A stretch of DNA of 64,000 nucleotides from an uncultured Saprospiraceae bacterium (GTDB lineage Bacteria; Bacteroidota; Bacteroidia; Chitinophagales; Saprospiraceae), in NCBI GenBank assembly GCA_964486185.1, contig CAZALD010000013.1, positions 34,897 to 98,896 on the forward strand. The letters are read 5' to 3'. Shown here piece by piece: positions 7,559-61,800 of the stretch (within the stretch, counting starts at the first letter, position 1; each line of letters starts with the position of its first letter). The position numbers and the translations under genes are program-made. The notes under the pieces were generated by a model, which was given only the letters and a program-made list of their open reading frames with translations, made no database searches and was not told the origin of the DNA.

Positions 7559-8265
7559 GTTTTAGAATATGCAAAGAAACTGAATTTTGAGATGGTCGGT
7601 TTAAACTTATTTTGTCAGAATTCTGATTTGAATGCTCTGTAGTAGAATACCTGTCCCGATCTGGTTGCTCTTTCATGCTTGCCCTGAGCATGGCATTCCG
7701 TCTTTTTGGAAACATATGGAATGGTTTACTGACAAAATTGAAATGGTTTGTAAATCTTTGATCGAATGGAAATCTCTTATTTTAACAATAGGTAATTACA
7801 TAAATACAAACAAAAATATTTTTTAAAGATGATGTTATAAATCGGAAGTTCATGAAAAAGATGGTGGATATGGACTATTTACCAAGTACCTTATCATTTT
7901 ATTAGCCAGTAATTGAGCCGAATGATTATTAGTTTAGTTGCAGACAGTAAGACTTATAATTAAAATCTATAGATTTAAAAGCAATATTTTCAGGAAATTA
8001 ATTTATAGTAAAATTGAAATAAATATCGATTGCGCTGATGCTATCATCATCCGAATATACCAAAGGCAACCAAATGCATATTTGAGAAAAACAAAAGTCT
8101 GGATGTCTTTTAATACAATCTGTAAAAAAAAGAAGAAAAGCTGGTCAATGACCTGTGGTAATTCGGGATTAACATGCCAGTGACCATCAGGGACCACAGA
8201 TAAATTTGCTGGAAATAGAAAGGTTTTGAACAAGAATTTAGCTTATTAAGAAACAAGCTAAATAA

Positions 8266-34240: not shown

Positions 34241-35646
34241 TGAGTAAATCTAAACCCAAAATTGCAGAGTTGGAAATAACCGGTCTGGCACATAAAGGCC
34301 TGGCGGTTGGCAGAACAGATGACGGCATGGTTGTCTTTGTCAATGATGCTGTTCCTGGAGACCGTGTACAGGTTATGTTAACCCGAAAACGAAAAGGTGC
34401 CTGGTTTGCCCATCTGATCAGTATTTTAAGGCATTCAATTCACCGGACAGAGCCTGTATGCTCACATTTTGGAATTTGTGGGGGATGCAGTTGGCAAAAT
34501 CTCAATTATTCAGAACAATTAAAACAAAAGGAAACATTGGTGCGGGATGCCTTATGTCGTATCGGTAAAATTTCAGATCAGCTCATTGAATCCATATTAC
34601 CAGCATTACACACGGAATATTACCGGAATAAAATGGAATATACTTTCTCAAATTACCGGTGGTTAACTGAATTGGAAATCAGTCAATCTGATCAGATAGT
34701 GAATCAAAAAGCATTAGGTTTTCACCGACCGGGAAATTTTAATAAAATTGTGGATATACATAAATGTCATCTTCAAATTGACAGCACGAATTCTATCCGA
34801 AACTTCATCAGGGATTATTCATTAAAACTGAATCTTGAATTCTATGATATTAAATTACAGCAAGGTTTACTCAGGAATGTTATCATTAAAAGTAATTCGA
34901 AATCAGAAATTATGTGTATTCTGGTGTTTCATTATGAAGACCAAAATAGTATAAAAGGGTTTGTCAAACATTTGCATACCGAATTTCCAGAAATAGTATC
35001 TATTTATTACGTAATCAATCCAAAGAAAAATGACAGCTATTTTGATTTAAATTTTATAAAGTTGTTTGGTTTGGATTATTTAACAGAGTATTTGGATCAT
35101 GCAAAATTTTTAATTGGTCCAAAATCGTTTTTTCAGACAAATCCAGAGCAGGCTGCAAGACTTTATCAAATCGTGCTGGAGTTTTGTGATCTTAAAGGCA
35201 ATGAAATAATTTATGATCTTTATTGCGGGGTAGGAAGTATCGGTATTTATCTGGCAAAAAATGCTTTTAAGGTAATTGGTATTGAGGAAGTGAAAGAAGC
35301 TATTGATGATGCAAGAATCAATGCCAGAGAAAATGATCTGGAAAATTGTCATTTTTATATTTCTGATGCAAAAGATATTGATGCACTTGAGTTGCAAAAA
35401 AATCATGGCAAACCTGATGTTTTAATTGTAGATCCACCCAGAGCAGGTTTACACCTTAGCGTTGTGAACCAAATATTAAGCTTGTCACCTGCGAAACTTG
35501 TTTATGTTAGCTGCAATCCGGCTACTCAGGCACGAGATATTCTATTATTAAGTGAAAAATATCTGGTTAAAAGAATTAAACCCGTGGATATGTTTCCTCA
35601 TACAAATCATGTAGAATCTGTAGCATTATTATCTTTGCAAAAATGA
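34240..35646 (+). CDS. rlmD: 23S rRNA (uracil-C5)-methyltransferase RlmD/RumA family
   Basis: TRAM-like N-terminus, Fe-S cysteines CSHFGICGGCSWQ, VLIVDPPRAGL, and YVSCNPAT. Confidence 0.8.
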   Translation: MSKSKPKIAELEITGLAHKGLAVGRTDDGMVVFVNDAVPGDRVQVMLTRKRKGAWFAHLISILRHSIHRTEPVCSHFGICGGCSWQNLNYSEQLKQKETLVRDALCRIGKISDQLIESILPALHTEYYRNKMEYTFSNYRWLTELEISQSDQIVNQKALGFHRPGNFNKIVDIHKCHLQIDSTNSIRNFIRDYSLKLNLEFYDIKLQQGLLRNVIIKSNSKSEIMCILVFHYEDQNSIKGFVKHLHTEFPEIVSIYYVINPKKNDSYFDLNFIKLFGLDYLTEYLDHAKFLIGPKSFFQTNPEQAARLYQIVLEFCDLKGNEIIYDLYCGVGSIGIYLAKNAFKVIGIEEVKEAIDDARINARENDLENCHFYISDAKDIDALELQKNHGKPDVLIVDPPRAGLHLSVVNQILSLSPAKLVYVSCNPATQARDILLLSEKYLVKRIKPVDMFPHTNHVESVALLSLQK

Positions 35647-57485: not shown

Positions 57486-57541
57486 TCAGGATTCTGACAC
57501 GAAGTAATCGAATCAAAACAAGGTAATGATCTGTTGGCAGG

Positions 57542-57615
57542 TCGGGATGACTGGATTCGAACCAGCGGCCTCTTCGTCCCGAACGAAGCGCGCTACCAGG
57601 CTGCGCTACATCCCG
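57542..57615 (-). tRNA. tRNA-Pro (anticodon CGG), CCA not encoded
   Basis: I folded the cloverleaf by hand: acceptor CGGGATG/CATCCCG, D-stem GCGC/GCGC, anticodon stem CTTCG/CGAAG with loop TTCGGGA, T-arm GCTGG-TTCGAAT-CCAGT. Length 74 nt. Confidence 0.92.
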
Positions 57616-57625
57616 AATTCGGCAT

Positions 57626-57806
57626 GGGTGTGGGTGTGGGTGTGGGTGTGATTTGGGTGTGGGTGTGAGTGTGGGTGTGAGTGTGAGTGTGGGTGTGATT
57701 TGGGTGTGGGTGTGAGTGTGATTTGGGTGTGAGTTTGGGTGTGGGTGTGGGTGTGATTTGGGTGTGAGTGTGAGTGTGATTTTGGTGTGAGTGTGGGTGT
57801 GAGTGT
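57626..57806 (+). repeat. Imperfect hexanucleotide tandem array G(G/A)GTGT, about 26 units, punctuated by five GATTT(T) spacers
   Basis: Direct reading gives 16x GGGTGT, 8x GAGTGT and 2 degenerate units. There is no cytosine on the plus strand across the whole array, and it starts 10 nt from the tRNA-Pro 5' end. Confidence 0.95.
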
Positions 57807-57977
57807 TGGTTGATGATCAATCTGAGATTGTTTCAAAAGCATAATTCGACTTAAAAACAGTATATACAATATACTGGATGATTGATCTAACAGGATTCAA
57901 ACTCGATTGATTGATTCTGATAGGAATCCAGACAAAATTAATCACAAAGTAAAGAATGGGAACAGAAGTGAATACAT

Positions 57978-58006
57978 AAAAAAAGGCCGCATCTTGAAAT
58001 GCGGCC
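57978..58006 (-). terminator. Rho-independent terminator of the sigma-factor gene
   Basis: On the minus strand, ggccgc-atttcaagat-gcggcc is followed by T7. Confidence 0.7.
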
Positions 58007-58129
58007 CCCCTAATCCCTGTGGGAAAACATATCCCGATTTTAAACGAAGCCTAAAAAACTCTCATTTTGATACAAAACGATGAAAATCCTTGGTTGGTTC
58101 ACAATTTTTGTTAAGATTTTACTAAAGCT

Positions 58130-58711
58130 CTATTGAAGTACCATTTTGCGCTCATCCATCATTTTACGGATGTTTATTAAAGCATAACGCATACGACCCA
58201 AAGCTGTATTGATACTTACACGGGTTAAAGCGGCAATATCTTTAAAGCTCATATCAGCATAATGACGCAATATCACGACTTCCTTTTGTTCGTCTGGTAA
58301 CGAATCGACTAATTGACGAATTTTATCATGAGTTTCGGATCGGATCATTTGATCCTCCCTATTTTCATCTGGTAATTCCAGAATATCAAATATATCAAAA
58401 TCATCCCCACCGCTTACTTTGTTCCGGCGTTTGTTCCGGCGAAACTGATCAACGCACATATTGTACGCAATACGGATAGCCCATTGAGAAAATTTTCCCT
58501 CATGATTGTAGTTACCCTTTCTAAGGGTATCAATAATTTTAATAAAAACATCCTGAAATAAATCCTCTGCCAGCTCTCTATCTTTGACAAACAAATAGAT
58601 AGATGTGTAGATTTTTTGTTCGTGTCTTCGGATTAATTCTGCAAAGGCGGATTCACTTCCTTGTAAATACTCATTGATCAATGCCTGATCACTTTGATTA
58701 ATAACTTGCAT
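58130..58711 (-). CDS. Sigma-70 family (ECF-type) RNA polymerase sigma factor
   Basis: Region 2 (LAEDLFQDVFIKI...WAIRIAYNMCVDQFR) and region 4 HTH (SFKDIAALTRVSINTALGRMRYAL). Confidence 0.8.
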   Translation of the reverse strand: MQVINQSDQALINEYLQGSESAFAELIRRHEQKIYTSIYLFVKDRELAEDLFQDVFIKIIDTLRKGNYNHEGKFSQWAIRIAYNMCVDQFRRNKRRNKVSGGDDFDIFDILELPDENREDQMIRSETHDKIRQLVDSLPDEQKEVVILRHYADMSFKDIAALTRVSINTALGRMRYALINIRKMMDERKMVLQ

Positions 58712-58974
58712 ACCCTAATGTTTTTAAAAATTAATTAAGTGTAGAAGTTATAATCTATAGGCTAAGAGTTAGTGAATTAATTTGAAATACGTGATAAAGA
58801 TATGATAAGTGCCTTTGTTGCTGCCAGGGAATTGTCCATTTAACGAAATTTTAACCGCAACAAGTGCTAACTTCTACAAATATATCAAAAAAAATGCCAA
58901 TTTCAGTTTCTTTTTTTCAGGTTTCTTGAGGAATTGGTCAATTTTGTTTCTTTTTGCAGGTTTATTTTCAGCGA

Positions 58975-61800
58975 ATGACCAAACCAAAAGCCATAGATTC
59001 CAGGCAATTTATCGAAATAAAAGGTGCACGGGCAAATAATTTAAATAATATTGATGTCCAGCTGCCTAAAAATAAACTAGTGGTTGTGACCGGGGTATCG
59101 GGTTCTGGTAAATCGTCATTAATTATAGATACCCTGTACGCTGAAGGACAGAGACGTTATGTGGAAAGTCTCTCGGCGTATGCCCGGCAATTTCTCAACC
59201 GAATGAAAAAGCCGGATGTTGATTATATTAAAGGACTTTGTCCGGCCATTGCCATCGAACAAAGGGTAACTACCAGCAATGCGCGTTCTACAGTTGGCTC
59301 ATTAACAGAGATTTATGATTTTTTGAGGTTATTATTTGCTCGTTTGGGAAGGACCTATTCACCTGAAAGCGGCATCGAAGTAAAAAAACATGAAGTCCGG
59401 GATGTCGTAGATTTTGTAATTGGTCAGGAAAAAAAGAAAAAAGTCTATATAGCCTTTAAAATTCAACAACAATATCCTGAACGAAAATTTGAAAAAGAAC
59501 TAAATGTGCTTTCTCAAAAAGGATTTTCCAGGATTTTCTGGAATCAGCAACTTCAACAAATAGATGAAGTCCTCAAGTCGAAAACCCCTGAATTAAAAAA
59601 ATCAGTAACCGATGTCTTGATTAATACTTGTGCTATCGTAGTTGACAGGATTATTGTCAATGAGGTCGATGAGGAGTTTAAAAAAAGAATTGCGGATTCT
59701 ATACTTACGGCGTTTGCAGAGAGCCAGGGAGAATGTCTGATCATCATCGATGAGCTTCAGGTTTATCCATTTTCCTCCCGTTTTGAATTGGATGGTATCA
59801 TCTTTCCGGAGCCGACCCCACAGTTTTTTAATTATAATAATTCATATGGTGCCTGTCCGGTTTGTGAAGGATATGGTCGAATCATTGGTATTGATGAAAA
59901 CAAGGTCATTCCAGATCCATCAAAAACGATATATGAAGGGGCAATAGCCTGTTGGTCTGGTGAAAAAGTCAGTGAATGGCTCGATCCGTTATTTGGTATT
60001 GCTTCCAAAATTAATTTTCCTTTACACCTGCCTTACCGTAAATTGGACAAAAACCAAATAGACATTCTCTGGCATGGTAAAGATTCATTTAAAGGGATTT
60101 ATGCCTTTTTTAAAGAACTTGAAGAGAAGTTGTATAAAATCCAAAACAGAATTCTCCTGGCCCGATACAGAGGGAGAACTACTTGTACTTCCTGTGATGG
60201 TAGCCGCTTACGTCGCGAAGCACTGAATGTAAAATTTGGTGGAAAATCGTTTCAGGATTTTATGTTTGTACCAGTTGAAGAATTATTGGAATTTTTTGCA
60301 AGCTTAAAATTATCAGATCAGGATTATAATATCGGCAAAAGGCTACTTTTGGAAATTCAAAACCGTCTGCTGGTATTGCAAAAGATTGGACTGGGGTATT
60401 TGAATCTCGATCGATTATCCAGTACATTAAGCGGCGGCGAGTCACAACGCATTCATCTGACTCGGACCCTGGGATCTAATCTGACCGCCTCCTTATATAT
60501 CCTGGACGAACCCAGCATTGGCTTACATCCAAAAGACACCTCAAAGCTGGTCGAAGCTTTATGTCATTTACGGGATTTAGGCAATACCGTTGTGGTCATC
60601 GAACACGAAGAAGAGGTCATTAAAAAGGCAGACAATATACTTGATATCGGACCCGGAGCAGGCATACATGGAGGACATGTCGTTTATAATGGTACATATG
60701 CAAATTTTATCATGCAGGCTGATTCTAATTTAACAGCATCTTATATTGCCGGAAAAAGTAAAATTCCCATACCGCTTCATCGAAAAAAAAATACCGATCA
60801 GCTTATATTGGAGGACGTAAATCTGCATAATCTTAAAGATGTTAGCGTGCATTTTCCACTACAATCGATGATTTGTGTTTCCGGTGTTTCAGGATCCGGT
60901 AAAACCAGCTTGATCAAACATGTACTTTATCCTTTACTTCAGTCCAAACTACATGATGAGATTCAGGATGACCGCCCAATGGCCAGATTAAGTGGATCGT
61001 TCAAGAGACTACAGCAGGTTGAAATGGTGAATCAACAAGGTATTGGACGTTCCTCAAGAAGTAATCCTGCAACTTATCTGAAAGCTTATGACGAAATCAG
61101 GGATATCTTTAAACAGCAACCATTATCAAAACTCAGAGGGTATTTACCCAAACATTTTTCATTTAATGTGGAAGGTGGCCGTTGCGAAAATTGTAAAGGG
61201 GACGGCGAAATAGTTGTAGAAATGCAATTCCTGGCTGATGTTACCCTGCTCTGTGAGGATTGTAACGGAAAGCGGTTTACAAATGAAATTCTGGAAGTAA
61301 AATACAAGGAAAAAAATATCTATGATATTTTGGAATTAAGTGTGGAAGAAGCCATGGCGTTTTTTGCCGATAAAAAAGACATAATAAAAAAGTTAAAACC
61401 TCTTGCCGATGTAGGCCTGTCCTATTTGAAACTTGGACAATCCTCTTCAACTTTATCCGGAGGAGAAGCACAACGATTAAAACTGGCCTATTATCTGGGA
61501 CTGGAAAGTAATGCGGATCAAATTTTTTTCATCTTTGACGAACCTACCACCGGATTGCATTTTGATGATATCAAAAAGTTGTTGTTTGCCTTACATGGTT
61601 TAGTTGAAAAGGGTCATACAGTGCTGGTCATTGAACACAATATGGATGTACTCAAGACGGCAGATTGGATTATCGATTTAGGCCCTGGAGGAGGTAAACA
61701 CGGAGGTAAATTGATTTATGAAGGACCTCCCGAAGGCTTGATACAAGTCAACGAATCCCACACCGGACGATATTTAAAAGATAAGTTGAATCTCGTATGA
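58975..61800 (+). CDS. uvrA: Excinuclease ABC subunit A
   Basis: Two ABC modules (GVSGSGKSSL twice, LSGGESQR/LSGGEAQR) and zinc modules (CPVCEGYG, CENCKGDG). The start is moved to the ATG at 58975. Confidence 0.92.
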   Translation: MTKPKAIDSRQFIEIKGARANNLNNIDVQLPKNKLVVVTGVSGSGKSSLIIDTLYAEGQRRYVESLSAYARQFLNRMKKPDVDYIKGLCPAIAIEQRVTTSNARSTVGSLTEIYDFLRLLFARLGRTYSPESGIEVKKHEVRDVVDFVIGQEKKKKVYIAFKIQQQYPERKFEKELNVLSQKGFSRIFWNQQLQQIDEVLKSKTPELKKSVTDVLINTCAIVVDRIIVNEVDEEFKKRIADSILTAFAESQGECLIIIDELQVYPFSSRFELDGIIFPEPTPQFFNYNNSYGACPVCEGYGRIIGIDENKVIPDPSKTIYEGAIACWSGEKVSEWLDPLFGIASKINFPLHLPYRKLDKNQIDILWHGKDSFKGIYAFFKELEEKLYKIQNRILLARYRGRTTCTSCDGSRLRREALNVKFGGKSFQDFMFVPVEELLEFFASLKLSDQDYNIGKRLLLEIQNRLLVLQKIGLGYLNLDRLSSTLSGGESQRIHLTRTLGSNLTASLYILDEPSIGLHPKDTSKLVEALCHLRDLGNTVVVIEHEEEVIKKADNILDIGPGAGIHGGHVVYNGTYANFIMQADSNLTASYIAGKSKIPIPLHRKKNTDQLILEDVNLHNLKDVSVHFPLQSMICVSGVSGSGKTSLIKHVLYPLLQSKLHDEIQDDRPMARLSGSFKRLQQVEMVNQQGIGRSSRSNPATYLKAYDEIRDIFKQQPLSKLRGYLPKHFSFNVEGGRCENCKGDGEIVVEMQFLADVTLLCEDCNGKRFTNEILEVKYKEKNIYDILELSVEEAMAFFADKKDIIKKLKPLADVGLSYLKLGQSSSTLSGGEAQRLKLAYYLGLESNADQIFFIFDEPTTGLHFDDIKKLLFALHGLVEKGHTVLVIEHNMDVLKTADWIIDLGPGGGKHGGKLIYEGPPEGLIQVNESHTGRYLKDKLNLV

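Follow-up and report, generated by a model that had tools for sequence, protein, structure and literature searches.

What is a run of 26 G-rich hexamers doing directly in front of a tRNA gene in a bacterial chromosome? The question is raised by a contig from the metagenome-assembled genome (MAG) of an uncultured Saprospiraceae bacterium (CAZALD010000013.1), of which positions 34,897 to 98,896 were analysed (64,000 nt, hereafter the window). An array of GGGTGT and GAGTGT units adjoins there a tRNA-Pro(CGG) gene read from the minus strand; the presence and position of this array, first described in an initial annotation of the window, are confirmed. It is an ordinary kind of element at an interesting place, and is probably a slippage-generated hexanucleotide microsatellite that sits in the leader of the tRNA-Pro(CGG) precursor (pre-tRNA), where it would be tolerated and filtered for orientation.

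A G-free hexamer array upstream of tRNA-Pro(CGG)

Direct parsing delimits an array of 181 bp (57626-57806), the plus strand of which is made of 14 A, 98 G, 69 T and no C. It comprises 24 perfect units (16 GGGTGT and 8 GAGTGT) and two degenerate ones (GAGTTT and GGTGT), arranged in blocks of 4, 7, 3, 5, 3 and 4 units that are separated by five interrupts, namely four GATTT and one GATTTT. Tandem Repeats Finder (TRF) reports it as 57625-57810, with a period of 6, 31.8 copies and a score of 183, and detects no second comparable array elsewhere in the 64 kb of the window. Exactly 10 nt (57616-57625) lie between the array and position +1 of the tRNA. Parsing, TRF and ARAGORN thus bear out the geometry, the unit blocks, the 10-nt gap and the absence of C from the plus strand as initially annotated. 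The whole C-free run extends over 194 nt (57624-57817), the runner-up in the window being 52 nt long. Read in the sense of the tRNA, the array is (ACACCC/ACACTC)n with AAATC or AAAATC interrupts and is devoid of G, and the corresponding G-free tract is 53-54% C and 0% G over its 194 nt. The G+C content of the window is 36%.

All five interrupts stand in the same flank context, and TRF also recognizes higher-order periods of 23 (score 184) and 35 (score 243), which points to the duplication of multi-unit blocks. The interrupts were thus copied together with their flanks, in agreement with the slippage plus point mutation that had been proposed at the outset. In predicted minimum-free-energy and centroid folds, the array is wholly unpaired, both as RNA and as DNA. 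Pairing of the ACACCC units of the leader with tRNA positions 2-8, GGG(A)UGU, was also considered; it is absent from the predicted folds and would need a bulge.

The sequence pattern of a canonical G-quadruplex (at least four tracts of three or more G, with loops of 1-7 nt) occurs once in the array, and every combination of G-tracts other than that at 57626-57646 has a loop of more than 7 nt somewhere. Of the two perfect runs initially taken for canonical quadruplex patterns, the one at 57626-57649 holds this motif, whereas the one at 57737-57754 has three G-tracts only and falls below the G3N1-7 x4 pattern; the G-rich strand is the template strand of the tRNA.

The array was also compared with other classes of repeats. 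Its period of 6 nt and lack of spacers set it apart from clustered regularly interspaced short palindromic repeats (CRISPR), which have repeats of 24-48 nt and unique spacers. It shares with the yeast-type TG1-3 telomeric repeats its GGGTGT composition and one G3N3 x4 motif, but lies at an interior, syntenic locus between genes that are conserved in the window and its relatives alike, and there is no chromosome end or telomerase context; the telomere likeness noted initially is therefore superficial and compositional only. No Rfam family matches the array or the leader at E<=1, the tRNA alone giving a score. Finally, a coding reading of two His/Thr/Pro-rich open reading frames (ORFs) of 75 and 87 aa that span the array was rejected: they continue into the tRNA, and the difference in length from the array of the relative L001, 115 nt, is not divisible by 3, so that the array is non-coding.

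Probable transcription of the array within the tRNA leader

In Bacteroidota, the -7 box of sigma-A promoters is TAnnTTTG, located at -12 to -5 (PMC9723704). The only exact TAnnTTTG between the sigma gene that precedes the tRNA and tRNA-Pro itself is TAATTTTG, in the putative promoter P1, and the same position reads TACATTTG in L001, L011, L015, L016, L222 and L223. A second candidate, P2, lies 17 nt upstream of the G-free tract; in the window it matches the consensus at 7 of 8 positions (TGCTTTTG), and it is exact, as TACTTTTG, in L001 and L015. Transcription from P1 would start near 57928 and give a leader of ~313 nt, and from P2 near 57829, with a leader of ~214 nt.

Neither a TTTG nor a TAnnTTTG box is found in the 10-nt junction ATGCCGAATT between array and tRNA, and such a box cannot lie inside the array because its tRNA-sense strand is G-free. 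A promoter within the repeat, one of the possibilities raised by the initial annotation, was rejected on this ground, and another of them is favored, a promoter beyond the repeat and a CA-rich leader left for ribonuclease P (RNase P) to remove, the only exact box being that of P1. With no box in the array or junction and conserved boxes upstream, the array is almost certainly transcribed, judging from the sequence, within a CA-rich 5' leader of 214-313 nt that RNase P would remove. The intrinsic terminator of the sigma gene (58011-57980) sets the sigma transcript apart from the tRNA unit, and the array does lie downstream of this terminator, as originally described. The distance from the P2 box to the tRNA is ~35 nt in L016, ~95 nt in L015, ~115 nt in L001 and ~219 nt in the window; it varies with the content of the leader, and the spacer between promoter and tRNA is thus the part that stretches.

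The following sequence of events can be proposed. Transcription would start at the conserved Bacteroidota-type promoter upstream, i.e., at P1 (57940-57933) and possibly at P2 (57841-57834) as well, and RNA polymerase would proceed through the array, producing ~190 nt of G-free, C/A-rich and structure-free RNA. RNase P would then cut 10 nt downstream of the array and free the tRNA. As a G-free leader can pair neither with the tRNA body nor with itself, tRNA folding and RNase P cleavage would be left undisturbed, which would explain why the array is tolerated and always in the C-rich orientation. We infer the start site, the co-transcription with the tRNA, the tolerance and the near-neutrality of the array. 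It is possible, in addition, that the array affects tRNA-Pro(CGG) output, via the length of the leader, Rho loading or a G-quadruplex on the template strand.

Between P1 and P2, the minus strand of the window also holds a perfect AT-rich hairpin followed by T5 (57853-57876, CAGTATATTGTATATACTGTTTTT), which looks like a weak terminator or attenuator by its sequence; it is not conserved in L001. A CACCC-ATG junction, present in the window at 57586-57618 (minus strand), recurs at L058:4383-4420 and L033:6740-6761. In the window, ATG-CCG starts a 10-codon frame that runs into the tRNA and in which codon 2 is cognate to this same tRNA; in L058, (ACACCC)4 directly precedes the ATG of a putative protein-coding ORF. 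The mini-ORF of the window was judged to be a coincidence, since L015 and L222 read ATGCTG and L085, L061 and L023 have no ATG.

Turnover of arrays at the orthologous locus

Homologues of the sigma protein of the window are annotated as belonging to Saprospiraceae or Chitinophagales MAGs, and the leader of tRNA-Pro can be followed among them as the identity of this protein decreases. At 96% identity (L001-L005, L007, L008 and L221), the leader has a 66-nt array of the same repeat. At 93% (L223 and L224), tRNA-Thr(CGT) comes first and there is no array, and at 92% (L011-L014) an unrelated (GGCTGTTA/GGATGTTA)11 array is found. At 91%, L015 and L222 have only the seed CCCACTCCCATGCTGAATT at the place of the junction and L016 has nothing in the leader, as is also the case for L141 and L142 (87% and 84%). 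The variation in length across relatives that had been anticipated for this locus is thus found (181 nt, 66 nt, seed only, or none), and the array shows the lability of copy number and sequence between related genomes that is typical of long simple sequence repeats (LSSRs).

The 66-nt version, CCACTCCCACACCCTCACACCCTCACTCTCTC(ACACCC)4-ATGCCGAATT-tRNA, is 115 nt shorter than the array of the window and does not differ among 8 contigs from different samples. The initial proposal of a length-variable contingency locus is somewhat weakened by this, as no variation within the population is seen in this version, where it could be looked for. The 8-mer array of L011-L014 (L011:3796-3884) starts ~20 nt after the -7 box of P1 and precedes tRNA-Thr and tRNA-Pro. 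Its first unit type is present in 5, 4 and 2 copies in L011, L012 and L013, respectively, and all but one of the four contigs stop within it; the differences in unit count are either a genuine copy-number polymorphism or the result of assembly trouble.

As far as these loci indicate, the tRNA-Pro leader is a site where tandem arrays arise, grow and vanish, which is the behavior of microsatellites. A short C-rich seed in the leader, CCCACNCCC-ATGCYGAATT, would have given rise to the array of the window, which would then have grown as single units and whole blocks of units were duplicated, its length and composition shifting between lineages. A pattern scan of metagenomes for CACCC-N(0-12)-GAATTCGGGATGTAGCGCAG gave no match in a collection that evidently holds no recent samples with L001-type contigs.

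Signs of constraint

At four-fold degenerate sites, the window and L001 are 33.6% identical (571 sites in five shared genes), which corresponds to saturation, and all pairs of lineages compared on the sigma gene are likewise saturated. Between the same two sequences, identity amounts to 84.5-90.8% from the sigma gene up to the array; the spacer 3' of tRNA-Pro is unalignable. Regulatory spacers at this locus evolve far more slowly than synonymous sites, and the high identity of the leader in the face of this saturation implies a function, as DNA or RNA, for the leader taken as a whole. The last part of it, (ACACCC)4-ATGCCGAATT abutting the tRNA, is identical at 34 of 34 positions between the window and L001, and this conserved (ACACCC)4 coincides with the sole canonical G-quadruplex motif. 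A further spacer, between the divergent uvrA and sigma genes (58712-58980, compared with L001:3740-4000), is 86.6% identical despite the saturated four-fold sites.

ACACCC arrays and tRNA genes in other genomes

A blind scan for (ACACCC)3, with one genome per species, matched at least 120 species genomes, so that the repeat is not as unusual inside bacterial chromosomes as first thought. The counts that follow refer to the matches listed. Outside Bacteroidota, 106 loci with a mean G+C content of 63% were found; 100 of these lie within an open frame of at least 450 nt, and none of the 106 has a tRNA within 1 kb. Fourteen loci are of Bacteroidota type; the run is non-coding in 13 of them, and (ACACCC)n is at most 60 nt away from a tRNA in 6. 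Such arrays abut tRNA-Pro(UGG) in a Prolixibacteraceae (L023, 128 nt) and a Saprospiraceae (L061, 56 nt), precede tRNA-Pro(CGG) in another Saprospiraceae (L085, 33 nt), a tRNA-Gly in a Bacteroides (L033) and, by 57 nt, a tRNA-Leu (L045), or lie beside the 3' end of a tRNA-Val (L071). If ~1-2% of intergenic DNA is that close to a tRNA, a rough estimate, this proximity is far above chance. Non-coding ACACCC arrays are thus largely a Bacteroidota trait, strongly concentrated at tRNA genes and fixed in orientation.

The downstream gene is a tRNA-Pro (CGG or UGG) in four of the upstream cases, i.e., three independent loci plus the lineage of the window. Upstream arrays are C-rich in the sense of the tRNA in all six independent loci (the window and L001 being counted as one), and the three arrays located downstream of tRNAs are all G-rich. 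At least four C3 tracts adjoin the tRNA in L023, L033, L061 and L085. On sequence grounds, the recurrent association of ACACCC arrays with tRNAs suggests a mutational bias or a function. Searches for publications on GGGTGT or ACACCC together with tRNA or Bacteroidetes retrieved only primer sequences and organelle papers and, as far as these searches show, the tRNA-linked, orientation-fixed ACACCC arrays of Bacteroidota have not been described.

In two of these loci, G-rich and C-rich arrays face each other. In L085 (6194-6414), (GGGTGT)n follows one tRNA and (ACACCC)n precedes the next, and a predicted 32-bp stem closes the spacer between them (z = -8.2); the paired arrays of L033 (6588-6761) would likewise form a spacer-closing stem of ~25 bp (z = -5.2). 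Both stems stop 4-10 nt from the ends of the tRNAs and, as predicted folds, resemble rRNA processing stems in layout. The window has the C-rich arm alone, and no G-rich arm.

Repeated modules that bear such arrays were also seen in other Bacteroidota MAGs (L032:5600-5660 and 7900-7965; L031:5180-5260; L035:900-1000). One MAG has two near-identical copies, 2.3 kb apart, of an ACACCC array followed by a promoter-like box (TATTTTTG) and a conserved downstream sequence; in another, two loci consist of the hairpin GGAGGACCCACGTGTCCTCC and then CACCC-rich tracts.

Explanations for the array

Taken alone, the array would be a microsatellite in a tolerant spot and of little import. Its position makes a sequence-only argument for a repeat of ~190 nt carried in a bacterial pre-tRNA leader, and with such a repeat RNase P and pre-tRNA folding in Bacteroidota would have to handle very long, repetitive leaders. 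Several points weigh against the tolerated microsatellite that we favor. The start sites are placed by matches to the consensus only, with a mismatch in P2 of the window, and the copy number of the array comes from a single MAG assembly. Recurrence at tRNA genes with a fixed orientation is not what a model of simple tolerance predicts. The chief argument against pure neutrality is that the G-free ACACCC tract persists across the deep split between the window and L001, beyond what is expected of a purely neutral microsatellite; in relatives, the same tRNA manages without the tract.

One alternative is that the leader is functional, either as a Rho loading (Rho utilization, rut) site or as a platform for another protein that binds single-stranded C, the length of the array being a tuning knob of tRNA transcription; the leader would then determine what share of transcription gets as far as the tRNA or ends shortly past it. 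Sites of the rut type are unstructured, untranslated RNA of at least 70-80 nt, with more C than G and regularly spaced C (PMC6407284). The window tract displays every one of these sequence features, being 194 nt long, unpaired in predicted folds and 53-54% C with 0% G, with C at a regular spacing of 6/12 nt. The lack of a detectable intrinsic terminator 3' of tRNA-Pro, the C-rich orientation at RNA level in 6/6 independent upstream cases, and the retention of the G-free tract over the deep split, with its 34 tRNA-proximal nt identical, all fit this idea. However, natural rut sites are not tandem repeats. In addition, close relatives have the same leader without an array, or with an 8-mer array that contains G; the tRNA-linked arrays of L085 (33 nt) and L061 (56 nt) are too short for Rho; and a loader 5' of a stable RNA gene would be expected mainly to reduce its expression. 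A functional leader of this kind is therefore unlikely.

A broader proposal would make ACACCC-type arrays, across the Bacteroidota, a cis-acting component of tRNA transcripts instead of junk, in which paired arms form a processing stem, and an unpaired C-rich leader is bound by Rho or a C-binding factor, making tRNA-Pro output tunable through the number of repeats. This would account for the bias towards tRNA-Pro, the strict orientation, the abutment at 3-10 nt from +1 and the persistence of (ACACCC)4. We consider it quite unlikely; if arrays did load Rho or build processing stems, they would be a new route for the control of tRNA supply.

The array might also descend from a processing stem in an ancestral tRNA-Thr(CGT)-spacer-tRNA-Pro(CGG) unit, of which it would be the C-rich 3' arm, tRNA-Thr and the G-rich arm having been lost in the lineage of the window. 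L085 offers a model for such an ancestor, with the order tRNA-Thr(CGT)-(GGGTGT)n-130 nt-(ACACCC)5-GAATT-tRNA-Pro(CGG) and its predicted 32-bp stem, and L033 is laid out likewise, its arms being GGCATGGGT...ACCCATGCC, the second of which is matched by the window junction. The Thr-Pro pair is moreover the commoner arrangement among relatives (L011, L142, L223 and L224). Yet neither the window nor L001 has a trace of a G-rich arm or of tRNA-Thr, the relatives with a Thr-Pro pair beside this sigma gene have an array-free spacer, and L085 is not at the orthologous locus. Such a relic, which would in any case account for the origin of the array and not for its present role, is decidedly improbable.

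Still less can be said for an effect at the DNA level, in which (GGGTGT)n quadruplexes and an ACACCC i-motif would modulate tRNA-Pro and slippage would create heritable, reversible expression states; we regard this as highly improbable. The canonical motif at 57626-57646 is accompanied by many more GGG tracts, the stretch conserved in L001 is precisely the four-unit run that contains it, at least four C3 tracts lie beside the tRNA in L085, L061, L023 and L033, and the 8-mer array of the neighboring lineage varies between samples. Against this, the fast switching that the model implies is not seen in the 66-nt version, frequent GAGTGT units and GATTT interrupts stabilize the array against slippage, L015, L222 and L016 have no quadruplex-capable tract at the same tRNA, and no precedent is known for the on/off switching of a single minor tRNA.

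Lastly, a collapsed, expanded or chimeric assembly has a close to negligible chance of being the explanation: the exact array occurs in one assembly only, there is a single record of the identical sigma protein, and contigs of relatives built from short reads frequently break off at arrays of this sort, but there is synteny on both sides, a related lineage has the same repeat at this site in independent assemblies, and interrupts and variant units provide unique k-mers across the array.

Comparison with known short tandem repeats

The initial annotation did not recognize the array as a described element, but its general class is known, as LSSRs and as intergenic heptamer arrays (PMC4679880). 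LSSRs with units of 5-11 nt are sporadic among prokaryotes and, in Bacteroidetes and Cyanobacteria, reach copy numbers of 43, according to the summary of Mrazek et al. (2007) given in PMC4679880. The window array consists of a unit within the 1-11 nt range, repeated head to tail far above chance; like LSSRs, it is short in unit, intergenic, slippage-generated and sporadic by lineage, with a copy number in the reported range. It differs from them by its 6-nt unit (7 nt being commonest in LSSRs), by one strand wholly free of G and by its place, which is a tRNA leader and not the region that precedes a protein start codon.

Intergenic heptamer arrays occur in Cyanobacteria, Beggiatoaceae and a few Bacteroidetes (MacGregor, 2015, PMC4679880). 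Close relatives lack them in the orthologous spacers, assembled contigs are interrupted within them, and they have no established function; RNA-binding proteins are suspected, and the role proposed is a translational one, just 5' of start codons (PMC4679880). Compared with these short tandemly repeated repetitive (STRR) sequences and TAACTGA arrays, Saprospiraceae intergenic regions are similarly full of varied arrays, which are absent from the orthologous spacers of relatives and inside which contigs end, while the window array has a different unit and period and a tRNA as its downstream gene.

The abundance of arrays in Saprospiraceae was surveyed in 85 loci (492 kb), consisting of 80 metagenomic loci with relatives of the sigma gene (68-87% identity), 4 relatives and the window. 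The survey yielded 60 arrays (period 5-9, minimum of 3 copies) with a wide variety of units, in 35 of the 85 loci. The family thus qualifies as an array-rich lineage, even though the window itself holds a single array, and the latter is a prokaryotic long simple sequence repeat that fits this picture. Saprospiraceae are thereby added to the few lineages whose intergenic DNA is full of diverse 6-8-nt arrays, the origin and role of which are a long-standing question. Four of the nine tRNA loci in this set, which was selected on one gene and is therefore biased, have an upstream array, and an enrichment of arrays upstream of tRNAs within Saprospiraceae was rejected as not clearly above the high intergenic background.

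Many different 6-8-nt tandem arrays occupy the first 100-400 nt after the sigma gene in L141-L220 (e.g., L155 and L215). They often form inverted pairs, which are predicted to fold into long perfect hairpins and apparently act as terminators. Examples are AGTTGAAA/CTTTTCAA (L149:3575-3675), TTGTTTAT/TAAACAAA (L173:3745-3830) and GAATTAC/AATTCGT, the latter just 5' of a tRNA-Gly promoter (L168:3925-4005). In L207 (3575-3975), six array types, including ACCCACACCCACACC, form a patchwork.

Two other systems invite comparison. Phase-variable simple sequence repeats lie in promoters or 5' untranslated regions (UTRs), as for the AGAT repeats of Moraxella uspA2 or those of Haemophilus (PMC4679880, PMC12721329). 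The window array has a similar placement, between conserved -7 boxes and the tRNA, its leader position being deduced from these boxes, and the array of a neighboring lineage varies between samples; unlike these contingency loci, the window array is heavily interrupted and the product is a tRNA rather than a surface protein. In Entamoeba, strain-variable, microsatellite-like arrays are found beside and between tRNA genes (PMC2652664). These belong to large tandem tRNA array units transcribed by RNA polymerase III in a eukaryote, and have no evolutionary relationship with the window array.

Neighboring genes and other features of the locus

The gene order folC-ubiX-ACPS-DUF4348-like-[tRNA-Pro]-sigma-uvrA is common to the window and its relatives on both sides of the array, which is thus inside a normal chromosomal neighborhood and not at a contig junction or chromosome end. 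The initial annotation had called for excluding an artefact at a contig junction; this gene order does so, together with the shorter array of the same repeat, for which 8 contigs from different samples have one and the same sequence at this place. Features of the locus are given in the table below; no intrinsic terminator was found 3' of tRNA-Pro in the window.

Features at the tRNA-Pro(CGG) locus of the window
Feature	Position	Strand	Basis
tRNA-Pro, anticodon CGG	57540..57615	-	ARAGORN; Rfam RF00005, 66.7 bits
Junction ATGCCGAATT (leader positions -10 to -1, RNase P site region)	57616..57625	-	Comparison with relatives
Hexamer simple sequence repeat	57626..57806	-	TRF, parsing, base counts; no Watson-Crick pairing in predicted RNA or DNA folds
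Only canonical G-quadruplex motif (GGGTGT x3 + GGG)	57626..57646	+ (tRNA template strand)	Regular-expression scan, G3N1-7 x4
Putative P2, 7/8 match TGCTTTTG, 17 nt upstream of G-free tract	57834..57841	-	Consensus match
Putative P1, exact Bacteroidota sigma-A -7 box TAATTTTG	57933..57940	-	Consensus match, conserved position
Predicted intrinsic terminator of the upstream extracytoplasmic function (ECF) sigma gene	57980..58011	-	Prediction; compensatory changes in relatives
ECF sigma gene	58130..58711	-	Open reading frame

From the sigma stop codon to the T-run of the terminator (57975-58075, minus strand), a block of ~100 nt, AAATGAGAGTTTTTTAGGCTTCGTTTAAAATCGGGATATGTTTTCCCACAGGGATTAGGGGGGCCGCAT...ATGCGGCCTTTTTTT, is near-invariant in L001, L011, L015, L016, L222, L223, L224 and L141-L143 despite saturated synonymous sites. 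RNAalifold predicts three hairpins in this block, the last of which is the extended terminator and shows changes from G-U to A-U as well as one from C-G to U-A. The block has no match in Rfam and could represent a small RNA or an element of the 3' UTR. In L007, which belongs to the L001 population, 63 nt that include the whole hairpin of the sigma terminator are missing (L007:1100-1130 compared with L001:4690-4760), so that the intergenic region measures 430 nt instead of 493 nt; this reflects either a deletion that occurred naturally or an assembly error.

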